NCBI GenBank assembly: GCA_007280905.1
Contig: QYQM01000001.1
Span: forward strand, 37,037-101,036
Source of the DNA: Porphyromonadaceae bacterium
GTDB taxonomy: Bacteria > Bacteroidota > Bacteroidia > Bacteroidales > UBA12481
Length of the DNA stretch: 64,000 bases
Direction: 5' to 3'
A program made the position numbers and the translations under genes. This document shows positions 12,143-37,448 of the stretch, piece by piece (the stretch's first letter is position 1; the number at the start of each line of letters is the position of its first letter). The notes below the pieces were generated by a model. It was not told the DNA's origin. It searched no databases and saw nothing but the letters and a program-made list of their open reading frames with translations.

Positions 12143-12155
12143 AGTGATTTTCAAT

Positions 12156-14531
12156 ATGAAAAAGATTGCATTTTCTTCCCTGCTGATAGTTTTTTCACTG
12201 TCCTTACAGGCGCAGCGTTATACCATCAGAGGAACAGTGGAAGATAACCTGACCGGGGAAAAACTGATCAGTTCCAATGTATATGATGCCATGTCACTCA
12301 AAGGGATCACTACCAATGCGTTTGGTTTCTATAGCCTAACATTTCCGGCAGGGATAGTTAAACTGACTGTCTCCTATATCGGATACCAAACGGTTGTTCT
12401 GGATTTAAATCTGCGCCAGGATACCCTGATAAATATTCGTCTCTCGCCGGTTATCAATCTGGATGAAGTTGTTATTTCGGCCGAAAGGGCCAAGTCGGCT
12501 GTTTTAAGCACCCAGATGAGTATGACTGAACTAAGTGCAAAATCCATCAAAAGTCTGCCCATGCTTCTCGGAGAGGTCGATGTTTTGAAAGCTTTGCAGC
12601 TTTTACCCGGGGTGAAGGGTGGAAACGAAGGTACAAGCGGAATTTACGTGAGGGGTGGGGGACCTGATCAAAACCTTATTCTGCTCGATGGAGTCCCGGT
12701 TTATAATGCAAATCACCTGTTTGGTTTTTTTTCAGTGTTTAACCCCGATGCCATCCAAAGCGTAAAACTCATAACAGGCGGATTTCCTGCCCGTTATGGT
12801 GGCCGTCTATCCTCAGTTCTTGATATTCGCATGCGTGATGGTAACAATAAGAAATTCAGCGCGGAAGGCAGTGTCGGTATTATTGCCAGCAAACTTACCA
12901 TTGAAGGCCCGATCATAAAGGATAAAACGTCTTTTATTGTATCAGGCCGGCGAACTTACATTGATGTGCTTGCACAGCCGCTGATTAAATTGCAGGCAAA
13001 AGGCAGCAATAGCAATATCAACGCCGGGTATTACTTTTACGATCTGAATGCCAAGATAAACCATAAATTCTCGGATAAAAGCCGCCTCTTTCTGAGTGCT
13101 TATTCAGGCCGGGATAAGGCCTATTTTTGGACCGTGGATAAAGGAGATAAGCAGGGTGTAAACTTTCGATCTGAAGCTGATGCCGGACTTGGCTGGGGCA
13201 ATCTCACTGCTGCAGTGCGCTGGAATTATGTCATCACACCAAAGTTGTTCAGCAATACAACATTAACCTATAGCCGGTACAATTTCGTAACCTCGATGAT
13301 GAATCAACAAGTTAATAATGATACCCTTACCTATAAGTTTCAATATATATACGATACGGGAATCATTGACTGGGCCGGCAAAATTGATTTTGAATACCTC
13401 CCCGATCCAAATCATACCATCCGTTTCGGATATAATCAGATATACCACATTTTCAAACCAGGTGTGAGCGTGTTGTCGATGCAGGGCGGGAATAATTTCG
13501 GAATTGATACCACCTTCGGAAATAAAGACATTTACGCGCATGAAGGTGCTTTGTTTGTGGAAGATGACTGGACTATTTCACCCCGGCTGAAAGCCAATAT
13601 CGGCTTGCATTTTTCTGGTTTTAAAGTACAGGATTCGACCTATACCTCTCTGCAGCCCAGGATCTCAGCAAGGTTTCTCGTGAATGAAAAGGTTTCGATA
13701 AAGGCTGCTTTTACCACCATGAGCCAGTATATTCATCTCCTGACCAACTCAACCATCGGACTGCCAACCGATTTATGGCTTCCTTCAACGGAAAAAATCA
13801 AACCCGAAAGAGCCACTCAATATGCTTTAGGTGTGGTTTATGAGCCCGCTGACGGCATTGGGATCAGTGTGGAAGGTTATTATAAATCGATGAAAAACCT
13901 GATCGAATACAAAGAGGGCGCAAGTTTCTTCTCCTTCACCAATGACTGGCAGGATAAAATCGAAATCGGGGAAGGCAGGGCCTACGGTGTTGAAATCCTC
14001 GCAAGAAAACAACTGGGAAAAACTTCCGGATGGATTGGGTACACCCTTTCCTGGAGTGACCGGAAATTCGAAAATATCAGCTTCGGTGAATGGTTCCCTT
14101 ACCGGTATGACCGCCGTCATGACGTATCGTTTGTTCTGAACCAGAAAATTTCCGATAACATCGATTTAGGGATTACCTGGGTTTATGGTACGGGGAATGC
14201 GGTCACGCTTCCCCTTGAAAAATATGCATCACTTGCAAGTATATGGTCAGAGTATCGTTATTTTAACGGGATCGAGGCTTTTGACAACCGGAATTCCTAC
14301 CGGATGCCTGCCTACCATAGGCTCGACATCGGTATCAACTTTAAAAAAGATACCAAATGGGGCGAGAGCGTCTGGTCAATAGGTGCATATAATGTCTATA
14401 ACCGCAAGAATGCTTTTTATCTCCAATTCAGCCAGCAATATATGGCCGACGGATCTTCTAAAACGGTTCTTAAGCAGTATTCGCTTTTCCCGATAATACC
14501 ATCTATCAGTTACAGCTTTAAGATTAAGTAA
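12156..14531 (+). CDS. TonB-dependent outer-membrane receptor with N-terminal carboxypeptidase-regulatory-like domain
   Basis: Signal MKKIAFSSLLIVFSLSLQAQ, then the CarboxypepD_reg-like RGTVEDNLTGEKLISSNVY...YIGYQ. It also has a plug region (DVLKALQLLPGV, GIYVRGGGPDQN) and a long beta-barrel. Confidence 0.85.
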   Translation: MKKIAFSSLLIVFSLSLQAQRYTIRGTVEDNLTGEKLISSNVYDAMSLKGITTNAFGFYSLTFPAGIVKLTVSYIGYQTVVLDLNLRQDTLINIRLSPVINLDEVVISAERAKSAVLSTQMSMTELSAKSIKSLPMLLGEVDVLKALQLLPGVKGGNEGTSGIYVRGGGPDQNLILLDGVPVYNANHLFGFFSVFNPDAIQSVKLITGGFPARYGGRLSSVLDIRMRDGNNKKFSAEGSVGIIASKLTIEGPIIKDKTSFIVSGRRTYIDVLAQPLIKLQAKGSNSNINAGYYFYDLNAKINHKFSDKSRLFLSAYSGRDKAYFWTVDKGDKQGVNFRSEADAGLGWGNLTAAVRWNYVITPKLFSNTTLTYSRYNFVTSMMNQQVNNDTLTYKFQYIYDTGIIDWAGKIDFEYLPDPNHTIRFGYNQIYHIFKPGVSVLSMQGGNNFGIDTTFGNKDIYAHEGALFVEDDWTISPRLKANIGLHFSGFKVQDSTYTSLQPRISARFLVNEKVSIKAAFTTMSQYIHLLTNSTIGLPTDLWLPSTEKIKPERATQYALGVVYEPADGIGISVEGYYKSMKNLIEYKEGASFFSFTNDWQDKIEIGEGRAYGVEILARKQLGKTSGWIGYTLSWSDRKFENISFGEWFPYRYDRRHDVSFVLNQKISDNIDLGITWVYGTGNAVTLPLEKYASLASIWSEYRYFNGIEAFDNRNSYRMPAYHRLDIGINFKKDTKWGESVWSIGAYNVYNRKNAFYLQFSQQYMADGSSKTVLKQYSLFPIIPSISYSFKIK

Positions 14532-14532
14532 A

Positions 14533-15462
14533 ATGAAAAAATATCCAACCCGATACCGACTGCAACTGGCCGCAATCCTGGCAGTTTTTGGATTAGTATC
14601 CTGCGAAAAGATCATCGATATTTCTATTCCTGATAAAGAACGGAAAATTGTGGTTAACGGGTTGATCAGTCCTAATCATCAGGTTAGGGTCAACCTTAGC
14701 AGGAGCTTGTCCGTTCTGGAAAATGACAGCCTTATTTCCATCACCGGCGGTGATGTCAGTCTTTTTCATGGTACCGATCTGATCGGAAAATTTCAGGAAG
14801 AAACCGGGGGGTATTATTCTTTGCCGGATTTCAAACCCCAGGTTGGCCAAACTTACCGGTTAACCGCCTCATACGATGGTCTGAATCCGGTGGAAGCCAA
14901 TGCAATTTTACCGCCACTGGTACCTATAGTCTCTGTTGATACTGCAACGCTTATAGGCGAATGGGGGCAGCAGGAACTACGTCTCTCAGTAAAATTCAAT
15001 GATCCTGCAGGAGTGCATAATGTTTACGGATTTGGTGTTGACGTTACCTACAAAGAGTTTGATTATGGCACCATGACGTATACCGGTAAAAAACTATCCC
15101 ATCCTTCTTACATTTTCGGTAATTCGGATAAATTTCTGAAGGATGAATCCACTAATTTCGAGGGAAAACTCTTTTTCGAGGATTTGTTGTTTGACGGGCT
15201 GATGAAGACCGTTGAATTTGGTATCACCGACTATTCATTTTTTGAGTCTGATACGGTCTGGCTGGATGTTAAAATGGAACAGATTGATCCGTCTTATTAT
15301 CTATACGTGCTGAGTTATGACGCTTATCAGCAGGCACATGGAAATCCATTTTCCGAACCGGTTCAGGTTTACACGAATGTTAAAGGCGGGTTTGGTATTT
15401 TCTCTGGCTCCTCATCGGCCAGTTTTTCGATAATTACCAGCGGGATGAGGAAATTCGAGTGA
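14533..15462 (+). CDS. DUF4249-like lipoprotein (usual partner of this receptor class)
   Basis: 309 aa with lipobox GLVSC, starting 1 nt after the receptor stop. Family assignment is from memory of the N-terminal pattern (IDISIPDKERKIVVNGLISP). Confidence 0.7.
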   Translation: MKKYPTRYRLQLAAILAVFGLVSCEKIIDISIPDKERKIVVNGLISPNHQVRVNLSRSLSVLENDSLISITGGDVSLFHGTDLIGKFQEETGGYYSLPDFKPQVGQTYRLTASYDGLNPVEANAILPPLVPIVSVDTATLIGEWGQQELRLSVKFNDPAGVHNVYGFGVDVTYKEFDYGTMTYTGKKLSHPSYIFGNSDKFLKDESTNFEGKLFFEDLLFDGLMKTVEFGITDYSFFESDTVWLDVKMEQIDPSYYLYVLSYDAYQQAHGNPFSEPVQVYTNVKGGFGIFSGSSSASFSIITSGMRKFE

Positions 15463-15508: not shown

Positions 15509-16057
15509 ATGATGACAGCACAAGAATTCAACGAAAAAGTCGTTCCATTAAACCGGCAGCTTTACCGGTACGCTTTCCGTTACCTGGAGAACCAGGAGGA
15601 TTCAAAAGATGCTGTTCAGGATATCTTTGTAAAACTTTGGAACTTAAGATCTGAACTTGTCACGGTCAATAGTATCGAGGCATTTTCAATCAGGGTAATG
15701 CGAAATTATTGTCTCGATAGGATTAAGCTGAGAAAAACGGTCAGCCTGGATGTGAACGAGTATTTTAGCAACCGGCCAGGAAATGAGCCTGCACCGGACC
15801 GCCACCTCGAAGTCAATAATTCTGTTGATATTGTCCGAAATGCCATTACAGACATGCAGGAACCTCAGCGATCTGTAGTGCGGATGAGAGATATTGAGGG
15901 TTATTCAAATGAGGAAATAGCAGAAGCTCTGGGTATTGCGGATGGAACAGTTCGCGTAATTTTATCACGTGGAAGGAATAAGATCAGGCAAATCCTGGCT
16001 AAAATGTATGGATATGAAAACGAACGGAGTAAAAATCTTATTGCAGAAATACTATGA
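15509..16057 (+). CDS. RNA polymerase ECF sigma factor (sigma-70 family)
   Basis: 182 aa with region 2 (DAVQDIFVKLW) and region 4 (YSNEEIAEALGIADGTVRVILSRGRNKI). Confidence 0.9.
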   Translation: MMTAQEFNEKVVPLNRQLYRYAFRYLENQEDSKDAVQDIFVKLWNLRSELVTVNSIEAFSIRVMRNYCLDRIKLRKTVSLDVNEYFSNRPGNEPAPDRHLEVNNSVDIVRNAITDMQEPQRSVVRMRDIEGYSNEEIAEALGIADGTVRVILSRGRNKIRQILAKMYGYENERSKNLIAEIL

Positions 16058-16553
16058 CGGATTGACTTCCTCCAGGGAAGAGTCCGATCTTGAAGAGTAT
16101 TTCCTGAATGGTCAGGTTGATCCGGAATTGGAGGCTGATAAACTTCATTTCCTGGCTGTTGCAGCTATGAGAGACGTAGAAATACCTGTACCTGACGATT
16201 TGGAGGCTTCTGTCCTGAATACTCTGAAAGAGGCACAAAAAGATCGGGTGCACGGCCACCGGAGAATTATGTATTTAGCTTTCAGCGTTGCAGCTGGTCT
16301 GCTCATGATGGTTTCAACATTCATTTTCCTTTCAAGGCAGAATCAAACCCAGTATATCAGTGATCCGAAAATTGCCTATGCTGAATCACGTGAGGCCCTC
16401 GAAATGGTTTCAAAATTCTTCAATGAAGGTACTTCCCAGCTATCTGGCCTGAGCAGGATCAACCAGGCGGTTGAGCCTCTACAGAAATTGAACTCATTGG
16501 ATAAGGCTGCAAAAAGTTTGTCAATATTGGGAAAACTGCAAAATCAAAAGTAA
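16008..16553 (+). CDS. Putative anti-sigma / single-pass membrane protein
   Basis: Start at MDMKTNGVKILLQKYYDGLTSSREESDLEEYF, with one TM (IMYLAFSVAAGLLMMVSTFIFL). It overlaps the sigma gene 3' end by about 44-50 nt in another frame. Position and N-terminal pattern resemble Bacteroidota anti-sigma partners. Confidence 0.6.
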   Translation: MDMKTNGVKILLQKYYDGLTSSREESDLEEYFLNGQVDPELEADKLHFLAVAAMRDVEIPVPDDLEASVLNTLKEAQKDRVHGHRRIMYLAFSVAAGLLMMVSTFIFLSRQNQTQYISDPKIAYAESREALEMVSKFFNEGTSQLSGLSRINQAVEPLQKLNSLDKAAKSLSILGKLQNQK

Positions 16554-16563
16554 ATCAAGAATC

Positions 16564-17076
16564 ATGAAAAAATATTTCATCCTGATAATATTATTCTGTA
16601 TGACAGCGAGCCTGTCTGCGCAGAATAAGGCTATTGAACAACTATTTCAGAAATATTCCGATAAGGAAGGATTCACCTCAGTAGTCATTACAAAAAACAT
16701 GTTTCAGCTTTTTGCCAATGTTGATAACCCAAACAATGACGATTTTTTAAGAACAGTTAAAAATCTGGAATTCATTAAAATATTATCCATCAAAGGGGAG
16801 AACGACGGCAAAGCTTTTTATCAGGATATACAGGCAGCAATCCCCGAAAAGGATTATAAGGAATTAATGACCATCAAGGAGACCGGCAATCAGGTTAAAT
16901 TCCTGACCCTTGAGAAAGACGGGGTTATCAAAGAACTCATCATGATCAGCGGTGGCAAGGAAGAGAGCACGATGATCTGGATGGCAGGAATTATTGACAT
17001 GAAGACTGTGGCTAAAATTGCCCAGGGAATGCAGATTAACGGTATGGAAAACCTGGAGAAGGTGGAAAAAAAGTAG
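16564..17076 (+). CDS. DUF4252-like secreted protein
   Basis: 170 aa with a signal ending SLSAQ and the pattern IEQLFQKYSDKEGFTSVVITKNMFQL. Family commonly follows ECF/anti-sigma pairs in Bacteroidota (from memory). Confidence 0.7.
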   Translation: MKKYFILIILFCMTASLSAQNKAIEQLFQKYSDKEGFTSVVITKNMFQLFANVDNPNNDDFLRTVKNLEFIKILSIKGENDGKAFYQDIQAAIPEKDYKELMTIKETGNQVKFLTLEKDGVIKELIMISGGKEESTMIWMAGIIDMKTVAKIAQGMQINGMENLEKVEKK

Positions 17077-17098
17077 AGACGCATACTTGCGTCTTTAC
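17073..17098 (+). promoter_or_regulatory. Palindrome 1 (GTAGAGACGCA-TACT-TGCGTCTTTAC) overlapping the DUF4252 stop codon
   Basis: 11-bp arms with one mismatch. The core AGACGCA-N4-TGCGTCT is identical to palindrome 2. The T-run is weak (TTTACCC), so it is not a clear intrinsic terminator. Confidence 0.5.
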
Positions 17099-17122: not shown

Positions 17123-17140
17123 AGACGCAAATATGCGTCT
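17123..17140 (+). promoter_or_regulatory. Palindrome 2 (AGACGCA-AATA-TGCGTCT) covering the ATG at 17133
   Basis: Perfect 7-bp arms. The annotated ATG (17133-17135) spans the loop/3' arm junction. Centre-to-centre distance to palindrome 1 is 46 bp. Confidence 0.5.
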
Positions 17141-19997
17141 CAACAATCCCGGGGTTTTCTATTTTTGTGGTGTGAAAAGAATTTCATCAACAACATTTCA
17201 CAGATTATTCCTATTGGTGCTCCTGGTTTTATCGATCCAAGGGCACGCACAATACTATTCCATGGGTTCCGATCCTTCGGCAATTAAATGGAGCCAGACA
17301 AATGTTCACCAATTCCATCTGATTTATCCGAAAAATCAGATCAGGCTGGCCGGAAAGTACAGCGAAATTTTAAATGATATAGGTGCTCCGGTAACCGCTT
17401 CCATGCAGTCAGATATCAGGAGTATTCCGGTTATCATGCATCCGTTTACATCCTATTCAAATGGCAGTTCAATATTGGCACCCCGTCGTATTGAACTTTT
17501 TCCAAAGCAGCCCATTGCACTGGAAACCAATGATTTTGCATCACAGTTAATCATTCATGAAGTGAGGCACTTTGCACAAATGGATAGATTGAATACCGGG
17601 ATAACCAGGGTTGCGGGTTTTATTCTGGGCGAACAGGCACAATCAATAGTCCTGGGGCTGCATGTTCCGAAATGGTTGTTGGAAGGCGATGCGGTTCTGA
17701 CCGAAACCTTACTGAGCCATGCCGGACGAGGCAGATTAGCCAGTTTTATTCAGCCTTTAAGGTCACGGCTGGTAGATAATAAGGACCTTTCCTGGGACCG
17801 GGTTTGGTTCGGCTCCTATCATGAATTGCTGCCGGATGAATACGTCTTTGGTTATTTCCTGACGGCCCGTGCCAGAATGCTAGCCGATCCGCTAATCTGG
17901 TCCGATGCTCTCGGGCAAATTGGAAGAAATCCTTTTAATATTAAGGGCCTCTCCGGTTTAACACGACCGAAAACGGGATTCAGGTTTTCTAAACTGTACG
18001 TGGAAACTTTGGATTGGCTGCGTGACTTCTGGACAAATCCTTCCCTGGCGGTTAAAACTCCTGATAGCCTTTTTAACATTACCAGGGATTCCCATGAATT
18101 TTTGAATTATTACAGGCCACAACAATTTAGCAATCATGAAGTTATCTGTTTAAAAAAAACAATGGGGGATTTACCTGCTTTTGTGATTATTGATTCTTCT
18201 GCGAATGAAAGAATAATTGCAAGGCCCGGAACCATTGAAGATGCCGGGTTTTCATATCATCAGGGAAAACTGGTTTGGTCCGAATTGATCCAGGATCCAA
18301 GATGGGAGAACCGGTCATGGTCAGAATTATTTGTTTACGATTTTAAAACCGGTCGAAAAACCAGATTAACTTACGGACAAAGATACTTTTCTCCGGTTTT
18401 CAGTCCTTCCGGGGATCGCATTGCCGCAATTGATGAACAGGTGGATGGCTCATCATACCTGCGAATCATAGATCCTTTGGATGGCAGGATAGTCAGATCG
18501 ATGCCGGAAGCCAGGAATGACCATTTCAGCTATTTATGTTGGGGCAAGGGTCCGGATGAACTGTATGCCATCACTACTGGTTCAGAGGGCAGAAAACTGA
18601 TTCATATCGACTTCAGAGAAATGGTGCAGGAGATTCTTCTGGATGCGGGATACACAGATATTGCCTGCCCGGCCGCATACGGCGATTGGATCTATTTCTC
18701 CGGTCCGGCAGGAGCTACGCAGGGACTTTACCGGATTAACAGCAATACTCATATTACGGAAATTGTATTTGGTCATCCTCATGGGATTAATTATTTAAGT
18801 ACACAGGACCAGAACTTATTTCTGTCTGTTTATTCTGCAAATGGTTACCGGCCTGCCAAAGTCGCCTTCGGTTCCTTGCGAGGTAAAACAGTTTATCGTA
18901 TCGATCCTCTTATTGAACCTGTTACAGCGATCATTCAAAGGGCTTATGGAGAATTTCCCGTGGTCTATTCCGATACAATTCAGACAGTTGCAATAAAACA
19001 GTATAGTAAGATCGGTCATCTTTTCAAACTCCACTCCTGGTCTCCCTTGTTTCTTAATCCGGATTCCTATCAAATTAGCCCCGGAGTGGTTTTGATGTCG
19101 CAAAATGATTTGAGCACCCTAACCTGCTGGGCTGGTTATCAATACAATAAAACAGATTTGTCCCACAATCTGTTATCATCGTTGCGCTATACCGGTCTTT
19201 ATCCCACGCTGGAAATGGATTATAGCAGAAAATACCGGAATCCTGATCCTGAGTCCGATTCAACAGGTCATCGATCTGGAAAATTTCCTGGTGCTTACTG
19301 GCAGTTTTTACGTTTTGGGTCGGGTATACCGCTGAACTTTTCTTCCGGGGCCTGGAGCCGGAAAATTCAACCGACTCTTTTTTTCGAGCAGGTCAGCTAT
19401 TTGTTGGACCGCAATTCCGAATTAAATAATTCTGCATGGATGGCCGGGTTGTCCTTTTCATCTGTTTTTCTGCGAAAAACCAGTTACCGTGATCTGTTTC
19501 CCAAGTGGGGTGTATCGATGAATTTCAGCTATTTCAAGGCATTCAGTCTGGTCAGGCGGGGTAACAATATGACGGGTAGAATTATACTGTATTTACCCGG
19601 CTTACTGCCCAATAGCAGCTTGCGGATACTGAATTCTGCAACTTTTTTGACCTTTGATCAGTATTTCAACTCCATACAGGATTTTCCCAGGGGCCAGGTT
19701 GTTTATCAGGCGCGTGACAGGTACAACCTGAAAATTGATTATGCGTTCCCGATAGCCTATCCGGATTACCATCTCAGTTGGCTGATTTACATTAAACGAA
19801 TAAAAACCGACCTGTTCTTCGATGCTGGTACACAGTTATATATCAAAAATTGGTTTATATCGACAGGGCTTGACCTGACTTTCGACTATCATCTGGTTCG
19901 TTCAGGAATTCAGCTGGAATCAGGAATCAGAATGATGTATTTTCCGACAGCACGGAAAATTGGTGCAGAATTTTTATTTGCCTTTTCAGTTAACTGA
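17133..19997 (+). CDS. Large secreted/outer-membrane protein: HExxH (peptidase-MA-like) region + PD40/TolB-like beta-propeller + Omp85-like C-terminal barrel (putative)
   Basis: 954 aa with signal ...LLVLLVLSIQGHAQ, IIHEVRHFAQ followed by WLLEGDAV (HExxH...EGxA pattern), and the PD40-like YFSPVFSPSGDRIAA. The C-terminal third has alternating beta pattern with DLFFDAGT. An alternative GTG start exists at 17172. Confidence 0.6.
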   Translation: MRLNNPGVFYFCGVKRISSTTFHRLFLLVLLVLSIQGHAQYYSMGSDPSAIKWSQTNVHQFHLIYPKNQIRLAGKYSEILNDIGAPVTASMQSDIRSIPVIMHPFTSYSNGSSILAPRRIELFPKQPIALETNDFASQLIIHEVRHFAQMDRLNTGITRVAGFILGEQAQSIVLGLHVPKWLLEGDAVLTETLLSHAGRGRLASFIQPLRSRLVDNKDLSWDRVWFGSYHELLPDEYVFGYFLTARARMLADPLIWSDALGQIGRNPFNIKGLSGLTRPKTGFRFSKLYVETLDWLRDFWTNPSLAVKTPDSLFNITRDSHEFLNYYRPQQFSNHEVICLKKTMGDLPAFVIIDSSANERIIARPGTIEDAGFSYHQGKLVWSELIQDPRWENRSWSELFVYDFKTGRKTRLTYGQRYFSPVFSPSGDRIAAIDEQVDGSSYLRIIDPLDGRIVRSMPEARNDHFSYLCWGKGPDELYAITTGSEGRKLIHIDFREMVQEILLDAGYTDIACPAAYGDWIYFSGPAGATQGLYRINSNTHITEIVFGHPHGINYLSTQDQNLFLSVYSANGYRPAKVAFGSLRGKTVYRIDPLIEPVTAIIQRAYGEFPVVYSDTIQTVAIKQYSKIGHLFKLHSWSPLFLNPDSYQISPGVVLMSQNDLSTLTCWAGYQYNKTDLSHNLLSSLRYTGLYPTLEMDYSRKYRNPDPESDSTGHRSGKFPGAYWQFLRFGSGIPLNFSSGAWSRKIQPTLFFEQVSYLLDRNSELNNSAWMAGLSFSSVFLRKTSYRDLFPKWGVSMNFSYFKAFSLVRRGNNMTGRIILYLPGLLPNSSLRILNSATFLTFDQYFNSIQDFPRGQVVYQARDRYNLKIDYAFPIAYPDYHLSWLIYIKRIKTDLFFDAGTQLYIKNWFISTGLDLTFDYHLVRSGIQLESGIRMMYFPTARKIGAEFLFAFSVN

Positions 19998-21257
19998 TCA
20001 GCCTCTTTTCATCTCAATCAGGGTAATCTCAGGCCAGATTCCAACACGACCGGGAAATGCCAGGTAACCCAAACCCCGGTTTACATAGAGATATTGGTTG
20101 TTTGATTTATAGAGCCCTGCCCAATATTTGTAAATCAATTGAACCGGACTGATTTTAAAATTGCCGATTTCCAAACCAAATTGAAATCCATGGGTATGCC
20201 CCGAAAGAGTTAGGGGAATCTGTGTTTTTTCGTTTACTTTCTTTACCCAATGGTCAGGGTTATGTGACATCAGGATCACAAAGGCATCTTTCGGAATCCC
20301 TGTCATGGCTTTGTTGAGATCGCCATATTGTTTAAAAGGCAGGAGACCCCAGTTTTCCACCCCGGCCAGATAAATCCGTTCATTATTTCTTTCAATGGCC
20401 ACATTTTCATTACGAAGAATCCGGAAACCCATTTCTTCCTCCTGTCTGAGAATGGCATCGAGATTGGCCTTTTTGGCAGCCTTGGTATGCCATGAAGAGT
20501 AGTCCCCGTAATCGTGATTACCAAGAATTGCAAATTTTCCCATCGGAGCATTCATCCTCGACCACATGGAGGTCCAACCCTCCATCTCTGATGCAAAATT
20601 ATTGACCATATCTCCCGTGAACAGCAGCAGATCCGGCTTGATGTCATCGATAATGCTGACCACTTCTTCGAGTTTTCCAGAGTTACTATAAAAACTTCCA
20701 AGATGTGCATCGGAAAGTTGAACTATTCGTAATCCATGAAAGGCTTGTGGAAGGTCAGGAAATTTGATTTCCGAGTGATGAACCGTAAATCGAAAACGTC
20801 CCCAGCCAACTCCGTGGAGAACTCCGAGAAATGGCAATGCGGCAACAATTATTCCGATTTTTCGGATAAAATCGCGACGGTTAACCATGGAATCCATCGG
20901 TGGGGGCGATTCTTTATAATTTCGTTTGCGGGTCAATCTCAGGACCCCATTTTTCAGATCTTCAAGACCTTCAAAAATGATATAAAACAATTTGAAAACG
21001 AAAAATGCGATAAAGACGGAATTGAACCAGATTAATCTTTGATATCGGGCTGGATCTTCCGGGGATTTCTGGTAATTCAGATAAAACAGGATAAACAGGG
21101 CAATCAAGCTTAAGGAAAACGTCAGGTAAACCACGGATGCTCTTATTCGGAATTTTCGGGACCTGCTTTTGATCAAACCCATTAATCCCTTGTATGTATA
21201 CAGGTCAATCAACAGGAGAATGGGTATGATCAGGATAATGGACTGAAATGAACGCAT
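19998..21257 (-). CDS. Membrane-anchored metallophosphoesterase (calcineurin-like)
   Basis: Motifs LSDAHLG, GDMVN, GNHD and SGHTHG, with N-terminal TM helices. I prefer the start at MRSFQSIILI (21257). The track's 508-aa version extends over the divergent gene at 21388. Confidence 0.85.
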   Translation of the reverse strand: MRSFQSIILIIPILLLIDLYTYKGLMGLIKSRSRKFRIRASVVYLTFSLSLIALFILFYLNYQKSPEDPARYQRLIWFNSVFIAFFVFKLFYIIFEGLEDLKNGVLRLTRKRNYKESPPPMDSMVNRRDFIRKIGIIVAALPFLGVLHGVGWGRFRFTVHHSEIKFPDLPQAFHGLRIVQLSDAHLGSFYSNSGKLEEVVSIIDDIKPDLLLFTGDMVNNFASEMEGWTSMWSRMNAPMGKFAILGNHDYGDYSSWHTKAAKKANLDAILRQEEEMGFRILRNENVAIERNNERIYLAGVENWGLLPFKQYGDLNKAMTGIPKDAFVILMSHNPDHWVKKVNEKTQIPLTLSGHTHGFQFGLEIGNFKISPVQLIYKYWAGLYKSNNQYLYVNRGLGYLAFPGRVGIWPEITLIEMKRG

Positions 21258-21387
21258 ATAGTAAGCCGGGTTATGGAACAATTTGAACAGAAAATCCGTA
21301 GTAAAACAATATAAGCCCTTCTTTGTTTCGGGGTGCAAGATTAGTTGTTTAATCTGAATTCCAATAGAATTCGCAATTCTAATTATT

Positions 21388-22085: not shown

Positions 22086-22853
22086 TTAAATCCTCTCAAC
22101 ACTGTTTTCCGGAATCCAGGCTTCTTTGCCATCTGCCAGCCTGATCCTGATCCAGGAGCCTACCCGGTCAGTTATTTTTACTTTAACCCCCTCATGAATC
22201 ACAAATAAGTCGGTTCCGCCTGGATCTGGCGAACTTTTTGCGGTTAATGATGATGAAAAAACAATCGCTGAATCCGGATGCACCGATTGTTTGTTCTGAA
22301 TACTTCCCAGCAGCCATGAAAATACCAGGATAACAATCAGCAATGCTCCCCCGGAAAGCATCCACTTTCTAAATTTGAAAACCCTTTTCACATAGACGAA
22401 AATGACCACGGATAATAGGAGAAAAAATGCAATCAAGCTAATATAGCCCCAGGCATCAGCCTTAATTATACAGGCGAAGGTGCGGATCCATTTTCTGAAA
22501 AAGAATTCATTTACGGGATTGATTTTATCGACCACCAACCGGTTTGCCAGATCGAGATTGAACTGGATATCCACATCTTTCGGATTCAGGATTAAAGCTT
22601 TCTCATAGTACAAGATAGCCGATGGAATCTGGCCCAGCTTGTAAAACGTATTCCCCAGATTGTAATACAATTCCACAGATTCAAATCCTGAATTGACTAT
22701 TTTCTGATATTCCTCCCTGGCAGAGGAATATTCTCCGTTCAGATAGAGTTGGTTGGCTTTGTCAAATACCATCTGTTCCACCTTGGATTGTCCGGCAACC
22801 GGAAGCCAGACGAGTAAAGAGAAAACCAGGCCGATCAGTACTTTCTTAATCAT
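22086..22853 (-). CDS. batE: BatE-like protein (TPR + TM + C-terminal SH3-like domain)
   Basis: 255 aa with TPR repeats (YYNLGNTFYKLGQIPSAILYYEKAL), a mid TM segment, and C-terminal GSWIRIRLADGKEAWIP. It is the last gene of the Bat operon. Confidence 0.75.
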   Translation of the reverse strand: MIKKVLIGLVFSLLVWLPVAGQSKVEQMVFDKANQLYLNGEYSSAREEYQKIVNSGFESVELYYNLGNTFYKLGQIPSAILYYEKALILNPKDVDIQFNLDLANRLVVDKINPVNEFFFRKWIRTFACIIKADAWGYISLIAFFLLLSVVIFVYVKRVFKFRKWMLSGGALLIVILVFSWLLGSIQNKQSVHPDSAIVFSSSLTAKSSPDPGGTDLFVIHEGVKVKITDRVGSWIRIRLADGKEAWIPENSVERI

Positions 22854-22855
22854 GA

Positions 22856-24679
22856 TTACCTCCGATAGGTTTTTTCTATACTAATAATAACTTGTTCCGA
22901 GCGGGTCAGAAGCTGGTGGAGGTCACCTTCGCCCGTTCCCGGTGCAAACCGTAAAAACTCTGCATGGTCAATGGTCTCAATGAAGTTTTTGATCGTTTCC
23001 GCATCAACACCGCGATTCACCAGGAGGTCGCGGATATTGTCGCGGTTCAGATTCGAAAAATTAATATTGAATTTATCACTGACATAGCCCCAGAGTGCTT
23101 TTGTCAAAGCTTCGAGGAACTCATCACGGCTCAATGATTCAAGGAATTTTCGTGCAAGTGCCAGCCGTTTGCGGCTGATTACATTGGCCTTCCTGAATCG
23201 GCTTCCTTCAACATCAGCCAGATTCTTAAAACGTGATCTGAAATAAAGGATAATTACTATAAATATCAGGGAAAGAATAATATAGTTAAAAATGAAACCG
23301 GTTGATGCGAAAAAATGATCACCTCTGACTTTAAAATTCGGCTTGCCGGTTTTAATAAAACGGATATCCTGTCCGATAACCCGTATGTCTTCCTTACCGG
23401 GAGTGCTGACAATGGTAGCTTCAGAATCATTCTCCCCTTTGGTGACATTGATCCTCATGATGTCGCTCGTAAACGATTTAAAACTTCCGGCCGTAGGATC
23501 AAAATAGCTGAAATTCCATGCAGGGATCTCAAAAGCACCGGCATGCCTTGGAATAATCAGGTATTCAAAGGTTTTGGATCCGGTAATCCCATTGCTTCCG
23601 GCATCAATATTATCGGTTATTTTCGGGTCGTACACTTCCAGATCAGCCGGGAACCGGAAAGCAGGTAACTCAATCAGTTTAATATTGCCATTCCCTTTAA
23701 CGTTAACTTTCAGTGTTATGGCCTCATTGGTTTTGACTTCGTGCTTGTCAATACCGGCGGATATGGTAAACTTGCCAACTGCTCCGTTAAAACCGGCCGG
23801 CTGATTATCAGGAAATGGTTTTACCGTTATTTCAACCGGGAGGCTCTTTATCCTTTTGGAAACCGTTTCATAATTGCCAAAGAAATCATCAAAGGGGCTA
23901 CGCTGTCCTTTTCGCTGGACATTTACAAAACACTCGATTTCAAATGGTTCAATACTGATCTTCCCGGTTTTTTGGGGAACCAAAATAGTTTTCCGGATCA
24001 TGCCCATATTATAAATCCGGCCGTTGTAGTTGGTTCTTTCCAGGCTAACCTGCTCTGATGTAGGAATTTCCTGATTCCAGAATCCACCAAAAGCAGGCAT
24101 CTTGATCTCTCCGAACCGTGCCAGGGTGACCCGTGTGTAAATCTTAATAGTGGCGAAAATCTGTTCTCCTTTATAAACCTGGCTGTGATCGACCTCAATT
24201 TTAACGAAAAGGTCATCTGGACTTACCCCGTCAGAACTGCCTCCGCCTTGTGCTCCCTGCTGTTTATCCTGATTCCCTTTCACTACTTCAATCCTCACCG
24301 GACCACTGGTAAAGGTTTTTCCTTTGACTACCGCACTGGCGGAAGGAATGGTGAAAACTCCCTCCACTGTAGCCTGAATATTATAATTGTAGGTATAAGA
24401 AACCGATTGACTAACCTGGCTATTTATAATCTGGGTGCTCATGCTGGTGGATAGCATTGGACCTGAGAATAGAAAGCCATCAATTTTGGGACCGGTGAAT
24501 CCTTCAGCTTTGGCATTAATGGTATAGGCCAGACGGGCAACTTCGCCAACTGCCATAACCTTAGGCCCTTCCGCGGTCAATTGGATACTTTCCTGGGCTA
24601 AGCATGCCCCCGGTATCCATAACCCTAACAGGATAAGCAGTGATAATGTCTTCATCGTTACAAAAGTTTCTCTTTTCAT
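22856..24679 (-). CDS. batD: BatD-like oxygen-tolerance protein
   Basis: About 607 aa with a signal peptide, a large beta-rich ectodomain, a TM segment (FIFNYIILSLIFIVIILYF) and a cytoplasmic tail. The start overlaps the batC stop as TAATG. Confidence 0.75.
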   Translation of the reverse strand: MKRETFVTMKTLSLLILLGLWIPGACLAQESIQLTAEGPKVMAVGEVARLAYTINAKAEGFTGPKIDGFLFSGPMLSTSMSTQIINSQVSQSVSYTYNYNIQATVEGVFTIPSASAVVKGKTFTSGPVRIEVVKGNQDKQQGAQGGGSSDGVSPDDLFVKIEVDHSQVYKGEQIFATIKIYTRVTLARFGEIKMPAFGGFWNQEIPTSEQVSLERTNYNGRIYNMGMIRKTILVPQKTGKISIEPFEIECFVNVQRKGQRSPFDDFFGNYETVSKRIKSLPVEITVKPFPDNQPAGFNGAVGKFTISAGIDKHEVKTNEAITLKVNVKGNGNIKLIELPAFRFPADLEVYDPKITDNIDAGSNGITGSKTFEYLIIPRHAGAFEIPAWNFSYFDPTAGSFKSFTSDIMRINVTKGENDSEATIVSTPGKEDIRVIGQDIRFIKTGKPNFKVRGDHFFASTGFIFNYIILSLIFIVIILYFRSRFKNLADVEGSRFRKANVISRKRLALARKFLESLSRDEFLEALTKALWGYVSDKFNINFSNLNRDNIRDLLVNRGVDAETIKNFIETIDHAEFLRFAPGTGEGDLHQLLTRSEQVIISIEKTYRR

Positions 24680-25416
24680 TACCAATCCTTTATGGTTCTA
24701 ACCTTGCTGGCATTCGCCTTTTCCTTTTTCACCTTTTCCTGGACCTTCTTTTCGTCAGTAGCCAAAGCTTCCAATAATCTCTTAGCATCTTCTTTTGAGA
24801 TTTTGACATTCTGAGCTTTAGACTGTTGCTGATCAGATTTTTGATCTTTCTGTTCCTGCTGTTGTTGCTGCTGCTGTTGATCCTGGTTCTGCTGCTGATC
24901 CTTCTTATCGTTATTCTTGTCCTTCTGATCTTTCTTATCTTTCTTATCTTTCTTATCTTTCTTATCGTTCTGTTGTTTCTGTTGATCCTGCTGCTTTTTC
25001 ATATGCTGGGCATAGCACAGATTGTATTTGGTATCAAGATCGCCGGGGTTGCGGCGGAGTGCATCTTTGTAAGCATTTATGCTTCCTTCGATCTTGCCGG
25101 CTTGGAGTAATGAGTTTCCCAGGTTATGAAAGGCTTTTGCAGAATTTGTTTTCACAATTTCATTGGATGCCGCTGCTTCGAATTGCCGGCCGGCTTCTTC
25201 ATATTTCTTCTGCCGGTAAAGAGCATCGCCAAGGTTAAAATCTGCCAATTTATTAACTTTCTTCTCTTCCAGAGCTTTCCGGTACGCCAATTCAGCGTTA
25301 TCGAATTTTTCCTTTTTGAAATACCGGTTCCCCTGCCGGATTTCTCCACGTCCCGGCTGGGCCTCTAATTGAAAAGCCAAATTCAATAATATCAGGCAAA
25401 TAAATAGGTTTTTCAT
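24679..25416 (-). CDS. batC: BatC-like TPR protein with expanded Q/D/K low-complexity linker
   Basis: Signal MKNLFICLILLNLAFQLEAQ, TPR repeats, then KKQQDQQKQQNDKKDKKDKKDKKDQKDKNNDKKDQQQNQDQQQQQQQQEQKDQKSDQQQ. I prefer the ATG at 25416. Confidence 0.75.
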   Translation of the reverse strand: MKNLFICLILLNLAFQLEAQPGRGEIRQGNRYFKKEKFDNAELAYRKALEEKKVNKLADFNLGDALYRQKKYEEAGRQFEAAASNEIVKTNSAKAFHNLGNSLLQAGKIEGSINAYKDALRRNPGDLDTKYNLCYAQHMKKQQDQQKQQNDKKDKKDKKDKKDQKDKNNDKKDQQQNQDQQQQQQQQEQKDQKSDQQQSKAQNVKISKEDAKRLLEALATDEKKVQEKVKKEKANASKVRTIKDW

Positions 25417-36560: not shown

Positions 36561-37448
36561 TTATATAAAAAAGAGTGCAACACCACAAACCGCTATCAAG
36601 GAGCCAAGGATTTCCCTCCAGGTGACTTTTTCTTTCAGCAGGATTATGGCAGGAGGAATCAACAAGACCGGTACCAGGGCCATGATTGTACTTGCAATTC
36701 CGGTGGTTGTATATTTTATGGCCATCAGTGAAAAGGAGACACCCAGAAATGGACCCAAAAACGATCCGGCAGAAACAAAACCTAAAGTTGAGGGCTGGTT
36801 AAAAGCCGGTTTCAGGAGCGACCACTTATTTAAGATCGTAAAGAGCAGGACAAAACCAATGGTTCCTGAAATCACTCTGATTTGCGATGAGGTAAACGGA
36901 TCGGCATTGCGCATCCCGAATTTGCTAAATACCAATCCGATAGCTTGACCCGCCGCCGCACCCAACCCAAATAGCAGGCCTTTAGCCGAATAATGGAAGT
37001 TGAATTTGTTGCCCGGACGACGAAGGACAACGATAATGATCCCGAACAGGGTAATAGACATTCCGAGTAACCCGCGAAGTGATAACTTTTCTCCAACGAT
37101 CATCCAGCCAAACAGGGCAGCCAGTGGGGGAGCCAATGCCATCAGAAGGTTGGCTATCCGCGATCCGATTAGTGCATAAGCGGAGAACAGGCAATAGTCG
37201 CCCAGGACAAACCCGATGATCCCGCTAACAGACAGCCAGACCCACCCATGAAGGTCGATATCAGTAGGAAACAGGTGTCCGTTGCGGATGATTGACAATA
37301 AACAGTAGAATACAAGGGCCAGGCTTAACCTGAGGATATTTACTGCCAGAGAGCCAATGCTTTTTGCTGCCTGTTCAAAAGACAAAGCTGTAACAGTCCA
37401 TAAAACAGCGGTAACCAGTGCAGCAAATTCTCCGGTATGATTTCCCAT
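36561..37448 (-). CDS. EamA/DMT-family transporter
   Basis: 295 aa, about 10 TM helices, in two EamA-like halves. Confidence 0.8.
   Translation of the reverse strand: MGNHTGEFAALVTAVLWTVTALSFEQAAKSIGSLAVNILRLSLALVFYCLLSIIRNGHLFPTDIDLHGWVWLSVSGIIGFVLGDYCLFSAYALIGSRIANLLMALAPPLAALFGWMIVGEKLSLRGLLGMSITLFGIIIVVLRRPGNKFNFHYSAKGLLFGLGAAAGQAIGLVFSKFGMRNADPFTSSQIRVISGTIGFVLLFTILNKWSLLKPAFNQPSTLGFVSAGSFLGPFLGVSFSLMAIKYTTTGIASTIMALVPVLLIPPAIILLKEKVTWREILGSLIAVCGVALFFI

Follow-up and report, generated by a model that had tools for sequence, protein, structure and literature searches.

In a window of 64,000 nucleotides (positions 37,037 to 101,036 of the forward strand of contig QYQM01000001.1, Porphyromonadaceae bacterium assembly GCA_007280905.1), we analysed one gene, hereafter the target, which appears in the list of open reading frames (ORFs) of the window. 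Its product is predicted to combine a signal peptide, a zinc peptidase domain, a beta-propeller and an outer-membrane barrel of the Omp85 type. The gene follows a cassette encoding an extracytoplasmic function (ECF) sigma factor, a putative anti-sigma factor and a DUF4252 protein, and it is followed, on the opposite strand, by a gene for a four-transmembrane (4TM) metallophosphoesterase (Table 1).

Table 1. Features of the target gene and of its surroundings, in window coordinates
Feature	Position	Strand	Basis
TonB-dependent receptor (CarboxypepD_reg N-terminal domain) and DUF4249 pair	12144-15462
ECF sigma factor, GFO_1088/PG0214 family	15509-16057	+	NF058625 172 bits (cut-off 130); Pfam Sigma70_r2, r4_2
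Putative anti-sigma factor, single-pass membrane protein	16008-16553	+	ORF and sequence; overlaps sigma gene end
DUF4252 (GFO_1090-like) secreted protein, last gene of ECF cassette	16564-17076	+	PF14060 E=5.6e-25; NF058626 95.7 bits (cut-off 150)
Inverted repeat AGACGCA-N4-TGCGTCT, first copy	17077-17094
Inverted repeat AGACGCA-N4-TGCGTCT, second copy	17123-17140
Target gene, 954 residues	17133-19997	+	window ORF list
Signal peptide	17133-17249	+	residues 1-39, predicted signal peptidase I cleavage between GHA and Q40; sequence and Q40 conservation
Predicted gluzincin catalytic domain, clan MA(E), Peptidase_MA_2-like	17253-18068	+	residues ~41-312; model, Foldseek, hhalign
HEVRH zinc-binding/catalytic motif (H142, E143, H146)	17556-17570	+	56/56 homologs; helix 135-153 of model
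WLLEGDAVLTE motif (E184, presumed third zinc ligand)	17673-17705	+	conservation; helix 180-194 of model
Predicted six-bladed TolB/PD40-like beta-propeller	18090-18896	+	residues ~320-588; model, profile, Foldseek, hhalign
Propeller-barrel linker, 44 residues, no POTRA	18897-19028	+	residues 589-632; DSSP on model
Predicted 16-stranded Omp85-type beta-barrel	19029-19988	+	residues 633-952; model, hhalign, BamA match
P852-R853-G854, counterpart of Omp85 loop-6 (V/I)RG(Y/F) lid-lock motif	19686-19694	+	loop 840-861, between strands 11 and 12
F895-F-D897-A-G899, counterpart of Omp85 strand-13 (F/G)xDxG motif	19815-19829	+	13th long strand, 885-901
4TM metallophosphoesterase (PF00149)	19998-21260	-	best NCBIfam LpxG 108 bits (cut-off 350), YaeI 93 bits (cut-off 188)
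Bat-type aerotolerance-like cluster (TPR/SH3 protein and BatD)	22086-24685 and beyond	-

Predicted domains of the target protein

The initial annotation had read the protein as a signal peptide followed by an HExxH...EGxA pattern, a TolB/PD40-like propeller and an Omp85-like barrel in which DLFFDAGT would be the counterpart of the FxDxG motif. This three-part reading is borne out by an AlphaFold2 model, by fold searches and by profile comparisons made domain by domain, and the results below uphold each of its elements. The full-length model, built from an alignment of 56 homologs that are 21 to 88% identical to the target, has a mean predicted local distance difference test score (pLDDT) of 87.6 and a predicted template modelling score (pTM) of 0.87. 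It comprises an alpha/beta domain (residues 41-312), 24 strands between residues 324 and 587, a linker, and a C-terminal region of 16 long strands (residues 633-952).

A phmmer search of the PDB with the target sequence alone gave only noise, and a PDB fold search with the full-length model was dominated by propellers and uninformative on the other two domains. Evidence for all three domains came from distant homologs (P0070, P0071 and P0074), which score above the gathering thresholds of Pfam for Peptidase_MA_2 (~110-235), PD40 (~360-580) and Omp85 (~656-907), in the same order as in the target. Over the full length, hhalign scored the target family against this Pfam-positive group at 100% (E=1.8e-69, 887 columns). 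To keep the propeller from dominating the result, the comparison was repeated with the alignments divided into their domains: the N-terminal domain reached 99.8% (E=1.2e-29), the propeller 99.9% and the barrel 98.5% (E=2.6e-15, 309 columns), for cross-domain controls at 0.1 to 0.2%. By these profile comparisons, each of the three domains is separately homologous to its counterpart in the Pfam-positive relatives.

The protein is predicted to be exported by the Sec pathway. Bacteroidota favour Gln after the signal peptidase I cleavage site, and the conservation of Q40 in 54 of the 56 homologs fits this preference. In the model, a helix of low pLDDT (residues 19-32) lies within the signal peptide. 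An alternative GTG start at 17172 would give a canonical signal peptide of 26 residues (MKRISSTTFHRLFLLVLLVLSIQGHA, followed by Q), and this codon is a plausible true start of the gene. The identical public protein (P0001, 911 residues, D4R64_00230, as called by NCBI) begins at M44 and has no signal peptide. As M44 lies downstream of both the hydrophobic core and the conserved AQYY cleavage region, this deposited start is probably wrong.

The zinc-site signature has the exact form first proposed: IIHEVRHFAQ (residues 140-149) and WLLEGDAV (residues 181-188) each occur once, with 34 residues between H146 and W181. An HExxH motif is expected by chance about 0.02 times in a protein of this composition. 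Seven residues of the signature, H142, E143, H146, E184, G185, A187 and E191, are invariant among the 56 homologs, and W181 is kept in 54 of them. E184 lies 38 residues after H146; this His-Glu spacing is 37 to 38 in the target family, versus 29 to 34 in the distant group that carries PF13485, PF07676 and PF01103.

Modelled alone, the N-terminal domain reached a pLDDT of 90.4 and a pTM of 0.89. Its 50 best Foldseek matches in the PDB are almost all MA(E) gluzincins of families M9, M1 and M61, the single exception being the M1-like domain of a TFIID subunit; no M48 structure is found among these 50. M9 collagenase peptidase domains come first (4ar8, E=1.5e-4, TMq 0.53), followed by the aminopeptidase-N-like 4fgm, one M61 enzyme, and M1 enzymes including LTA4H. 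The domain is thus modelled with a thermolysin-like gluzincin fold, and shares with clan MA(E) the placement of HExxH on one helix and of the Glu on the following one. It differs from these enzymes by the lack of a GxMEN motif, by TM-scores of about 0.5, by an identity of only 11 to 15% and by the longer His-Glu spacing. PF13485 does not match the target itself; it matches two of the distant homologs, P0071 at 38.2 bits and P0074 at 44.7 bits, for a cut-off of 32.4.

M1 enzymes carry a WLNEGFA motif, which the WxxEGxA segment of the target (WLLEGDAVLTE) resembles. Membership in the M1 aminopeptidases was nevertheless rejected, the G.MEN exopeptidase motif being present in none of the 56 family members and none of the 8 distant ones. 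Because this motif is not found in any family member, the target is more likely, as judged from its sequence, to be a zinc endo- or oligopeptidase than an M1 aminopeptidase.

In the propeller region, the 24 strands of the model form six four-stranded blades, and the PD40-type segment YFSPVFSPSGDRIAA (residues 418-432, positions 18384-18428) occurs once. TolB is the best match of this region both in sequence (family profile against 7mx5, E=1.6e-14) and in fold, TolB structures being the top matches of the full-length Foldseek search. Profile and fold searches also found a resemblance to the propellers of DPP-IV, acylaminoacyl peptidase and tricorn. Although it shares the six-bladed PD40 propeller, the target differs from TolB by a peptidase domain in place of TolB's own N-terminal domain, by its fusion to a barrel and by its location outside any tol-pal operon. 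We therefore rejected membership in the TolB family of the Tol-Pal system: no NCBIfam TolB model matches the target, the likeness is confined to the propeller, and the distant homolog P0071 scores 164.6 bits against TIGR02800 (TolB), for a cut-off of 343.

A polypeptide-transport-associated (POTRA) domain was looked for in the linker with DSSP on the model. No beta-alpha-alpha-beta-beta unit was found between residues 589 and 632, which contain a single helix of three residues.

The 16 long strands of the C-terminal region are mostly modelled at a pLDDT of about 85 to 95. With a profile of the barrel alone, the PDB gave one sequence match below E=0.1, to BamA (8xnb, E=0.035), and this alignment is in register at both motifs described hereafter. 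At the loop-6 site, whose aligned counterparts are LRGY in the distant group and RELRG in BamA, R853 is kept in 54 and G854 in 55 of the 56 homologs, and the next position is Y or Q. At the strand-13 site, which aligns to LFADYG of BamA, F895 and D897 are each kept in 54; the string DLFFDAGT (residues 893-900) occurs once in the protein. A loop-6 RG and a strand-13 FxD are the two 'lid-lock' hallmarks of Omp85 barrels (PMC11358297). The C-terminal 320 residues are thus predicted to form a 16-strand outer-membrane barrel of the Omp85 type with both lid-lock motifs, although PF01103 does not match the target at E<=0.1 and no precomputed PF01103 match exists for any of the proteins P0001 to P0066. 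The likeness to BamA and TamA covers the 16-strand barrel and its two motifs, with no sign of an insertase function, and the target has no POTRA domain, the element of the classical Omp85 definition.

Several family-specific motifs are nearly invariant near the start of the barrel (positions 19032-19046 and nearby): H634-S-W-x-P638 in strand 1, SQNxLxT (656-662) and PLNFSSG (733-739). Neither BamA nor TamA has a counterpart known to us, and these motifs may mark the barrel seam or a docking site for the soluble domains.

Relatives and distribution

Heinz and Lithgow (Front Microbiol 5:370, 2014; PMC4104836) divided the Omp85/TpsB superfamily into ten subfamilies, some of them without POTRA domains. 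One is 'WD40-Omp85', a 'WD40-like' cluster defined in their Table S2 by PF07676 repeats together with PF01103. Their Table S3 lists, for each member, Phyre2 hits to BamA/TamA, to TolB (2w8b, 2ivz) and a 'best aminopeptidase hit' (1z5h, 4fgm, 4kxd), while their main text discusses the propeller alone, as BamB- or TolB-like, and never the peptidase. A 2024 paper sums up the same subfamily as having 'divergent WD40 and peptidase domains'. The target has these features, namely a PD40/TolB-like propeller N-terminal to an Omp85 barrel and an MA-clan aminopeptidase-like N-terminus, in the same three-part layout, and 4fgm is common to Table S3 and to its own top fold matches. We linked it to the subfamily through proteins of the same PF13485, PF07676 and PF01103 composition, and not through the listed accessions (A1ZR83, D0MEQ5, H1XQ58). 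The architecture was thus catalogued in 2014, and by its sequence the target is a divergent Bacteroidota member of the 'WD40-like' subfamily, in a clade divergent enough that none of its three domains is detected by Pfam or NCBIfam. The initial annotation had cited no characterised protein of this architecture; this stands as regards experiments, of which we found none, but not as regards the architecture itself. The 'Metallo' Omp85 subfamily was also considered as a match for the HExxH domain and rejected, for it carries PF00149 (Metallophos, a calcineurin-like phosphoesterase domain) and no peptidase.

The family is large. At E<=1e-30, an exhaustive profile search returned 3,662 cluster representatives (clusters formed at 50% identity); of the top 150 matches, nearly all align over almost their full length. 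We count this breadth of near-full-length matches as a sign of purifying selection, which would support an active enzyme of the kind proposed below. A scan with a single motif, EGDAV..ET, over one genome per GTDB species confirmed at least 524 loci, mostly in Bacteroidales, Prolixibacteraceae and Marinilabiliaceae. Other loci come from Sporocytophaga and from one metagenome-assembled genome (MAG) of Chlorobiota. Cultured carriers include Mangrovibacterium marinum DSM 28823, Labilibacter marinus Y11, Carboxylicivirga sp. A043 and Plebeiibacterium sediminum. The Pfam-positive sister group reaches Aerophobetes, Polyangia/Myxococcales, Deltaproteobacteria and Pseudomonadota, under generic annotations such as 'PD40 domain-containing protein', 'Tol biopolymer transport system component' and 'peptidase MA family metallohydrolase'. 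The Bacteroidota branch escapes Pfam and NCBIfam altogether and is named 'hypothetical protein', so that its recognition would improve the annotation of at least 524 GTDB species genomes.

Location and possible function

We favour, with a probability of roughly 60%, a reading of the target as an outer-membrane-anchored zinc peptidase that faces the periplasm, with a TolB-like propeller, on an Omp85 barrel. The peptidase and the propeller would most likely lie at the inner face of the outer membrane, with the former an active zinc endo- or oligopeptidase. Two considerations point to this periplasmic location: the two ends of a 16-strand barrel lie on the periplasmic side, and the N-terminal enzyme domain of PlpD, a Pseudomonas aeruginosa protein, was found by experiment to be exclusively periplasmic (PMC11116518). 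Like the target, and unlike a classical insertase, PlpD joins an Omp85 barrel to an N-terminal enzyme domain; it differs by a patatin lipase domain with one POTRA, where the target combines a zinc peptidase with a propeller and lacks POTRA. PlpD forms homodimers. The pTM of the whole chain suggests that the soluble domains dock onto the barrel in a defined way.

A different topology would have the barrel act as a type-V-like autotransporter, through which the peptidase, alone or together with the propeller, reaches the cell surface to degrade external proteins. The nearest folds, M9 collagenase peptidase domains, belong to secreted enzymes. However, the surface proteases of Bacteroidota usually leave the cell through the type IX secretion system or as lipoproteins. 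Autotransport was the original model for PlpD and was raised by Heinz and Lithgow for the enzyme-bearing Omp85 subfamilies (PMC4104836), but the experiments on PlpD contradict it for that protein. Moreover, a folded propeller and peptidase of about 550 residues would be hard to pass through a 16-strand lumen filled by the conserved loop 6, and the docked arrangement suggested by the model also argues against export. We regard autotransport as very unlikely.

For the periplasmic peptidase that we favour, the propeller probably selects or gates the substrates. Propellers filter substrates in tricorn, DPP-IV and prolyl oligopeptidases. The barrel would anchor the enzyme, and the conservation of the lid-lock motifs leads us to think that its part is not purely passive; in addition, it may recruit clients in the form of unfolded beta-barrel proteins.

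If the barrel were an anchor only, the protein could be a nutritional peptidase that trims imported oligopeptides in the periplasm, like DPP-IV, DPP5 and PTP-A of Bacteroidota. The likeness of its propeller to those of DPP-IV, acylaminoacyl peptidase and tricorn would fit such a role, as would the M1 and M61 aminopeptidases among the relatives of its peptidase domain, and the gene lies downstream of a TonB-dependent receptor/DUF4249 pair in the target clade and in the Chlorobiota MAG (locus L070). On the other hand, the GxMEN exopeptidase motif is found in 0 of 64 members, the best fold matches are M9 endopeptidases, lid-lock conservation would be unneeded in a mere anchor, and most loci show no peptide-uptake context. 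We therefore consider a nutritional role unlikely.

A second alternative starts from the barrel, and makes of the protein a BamA/TamA-like assembly or translocation factor in which the propeller is a built-in BamB-like scaffold and the peptidase is accessory or regulatory. This is how Heinz and Lithgow hypothesised the role of the 'WD40-like' subfamily (PMC4104836); the conserved lid-lock motifs agree with it, and assembly or translocation is the role of every Omp85 protein that had been studied before PlpD (PMC11116518). The model contains no POTRA domain, however, and its propeller is TolB-like, with six blades where the prototypical BamB has eight (PMC11358297). The strict invariance of HExxH...E indicates that catalysis is under selection, and PlpD is a precedent for an Omp85 scaffold re-used for another function. 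An assembly factor seems to us quite unlikely.

What a tethered peptidase at the outer membrane might do is suggested by BepA, a periplasmic HExxH zinc protease that is reported (PMC13478230; bioRxiv 10.64898/2026.07.01.735768) to act at BAM, the machinery that assembles beta-barrels, in the quality control of outer-membrane proteins. The analogy is functional only, in that a periplasmic HExxH zinc protease acts at an Omp85 barrel: BepA is a separate soluble protein of family M48 with TPR repeats that docks onto BAM, whereas the target has a propeller and a fused barrel. Client recruitment together with a tethered protease would make the target a single-polypeptide analogue of BepA at BAM, engaged in the turnover or quality control of envelope proteins. 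In its most elaborate form, this idea describes a self-contained machine, a single-chain BamA plus BepA, in which the lateral seam of the barrel captures stalled or misfolded beta-barrel clients and the propeller passes them to the tethered zinc protease; it would be switched on by the ECF envelope-stress sigma factor in this lineage and might, across lineages, cooperate with the 4TM metallophosphoesterase. We consider it a long shot.

Several observations weigh against our preferred reading. The target itself has no significant Pfam or NCBIfam match, only a sub-threshold DUF5050, and the match of its barrel to BamA is marginal. The final Gly of the FxDxG motif is present in only 18 of the 56 homologs and is replaced by A, S or T in the others. 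A C-terminal Phe, the canonical beta-signal, is found in 7 of the 8 distant Pfam-positive sequences but in only 8 of 56 in the target clade; C-termini of this Bacteroidota clade mostly have Asn or other residues, with an F-x-F pattern kept a few residues earlier. Most family members lie among unrelated housekeeping genes, without any envelope-stress context. A full-text literature search found no experimental work on any member of the 'WD40-like' family. The protease, quality-control or secretion role put forward in the initial annotation is one that we too infer, and quality control, based on analogy, is attractive but unproven.

The architecture will be no surprise to an Omp85 specialist. 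Omp85 proteins are central to outer-membrane biogenesis, and PlpD showed that their scaffold can be re-used for periplasmic enzymes; the target family would be a second enzyme-bearing case, in which a protease takes the place of the lipase. Its distribution is far wider than that of the PlpD type, with thousands of clusters in Bacteroidota, Myxococcota, Aerophobetes and other phyla, and its Bacteroidota branch lies outside all curated models. As the family is present in cultured organisms, the role of a protease-bearing Omp85 is directly testable.

Genomic neighbourhood

The initial annotation had placed the gene immediately downstream of an envelope-stress module of the ECF type. The cassette is real, its sigma factor scoring well above the family cut-off, but a comparison of 86 loci shows that the association is not a property of the family. 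The cassette lies beside the target gene in only 5 to 6 of the 86, all from the target's own clade (at least 34% identity) with the whole neighbourhood collinear, while family members at 27 to 30% identity sit among housekeeping genes. The ECF link is lineage-specific, and we rejected the module as a family-wide partner. The distance from the cassette to the target is 56 nt here and 0 to 12 nt in two related loci (L002, L004). Within this lineage, the target is probably co-transcribed with the sigma/anti-sigma/DUF4252 cassette, which would place it in an envelope-stress response there and only there.

A further possibility is that the target is the dedicated protease of this ECF cascade, cleaving the anti-sigma factor or the DUF4252 protein upon a signal at the outer membrane. 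In favour of it, the gene lies directly downstream of the three cassette genes, at an operon-like spacing, in the target clade down to 34 to 36% identity. In Porphyromonas gingivalis, the genes of the homologous PG0214-PG0218 cluster are regulated together, being strongly down in PG1236-deficient strains under control conditions and under nitric-oxide stress (PMC11018363). Yet the cassette accompanies few members of the family, the GFO_1088/1090/1091 cassette has its own NCBIfam models, none of which covers the target, and in the Chlorobiota MAG the TonB receptor/DUF4249 pair abuts the target gene with no sigma cassette between them. Such a dedication is, in our opinion, highly improbable; the more general periplasmic peptidase remains our choice.

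The same Chlorobiota locus, with its receptor pair upstream of the target and no match to the cassette, suggests that the ECF cassette was inserted or lost between the pair and the target gene. Within the cassette, the anti-sigma protein has no Pfam or NCBIfam match, and three related loci (L001, L002 and L004) have a gene call at the corresponding position. Its ORF, which starts at 15969 or 16008 depending on the start chosen, shares about 45 to 90 nt with the 3' end of the sigma gene; the overlap also exists in these three loci, and suggests translational coupling.

Between the stop codon of the DUF4252 gene and the target lie two copies of a perfect 7-bp inverted repeat, 46 nt apart, the second of which includes the ATG at 17133. 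These are the only two matches to the sequence in the window, for 0.08 expected. Their arms can also pair crosswise to give one long hairpin (minimum free energy -36.2 kcal/mol, z=-3.3). The repeats were not found in the aligned stretches of loci L007, L002 and L004, and L001 has a degenerate second copy only. The pair may form the structure of a leader or an attenuator, or may represent a palindromic element of small size. Scans for promoters and terminators near the target, which do not model Bacteroidota or ECF promoters, gave no more sites than shuffled sequence.

Unbiased clustering of the neighbouring ORFs pointed to the 4TM metallophosphoesterase as the most frequent neighbour of the family, directly downstream of the target in 26 of 79 assessable loci. 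It is convergent in 21 of these 26, with 3' ends that abut or overlap in 20 cases, and co-directional in the other 5, at 27 to 217 nt; another 3 loci have it about 2.5 kb upstream. The association occurs in two clades whose targets share only 28 to 30% identity. In loci of the Prolixibacteraceae type, it belongs to an extended syntenic block in which pyrK and pyrD are also found. The adjacency may reflect a functional link or only slow-decaying synteny. After its transmembrane segments, the metallophosphoesterase has the sequence RRDFIRK, which resembles by eye a twin-arginine (Tat) signal; this RR motif might direct the catalytic domain to the periplasm. In the separate 'Metallo' Omp85 subfamily, a Metallophos domain is fused to the barrel itself.

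Further downstream, the Bat-type cluster is collinear in the target clade, and VWA/BatA-like genes are found further on in the homologous loci.

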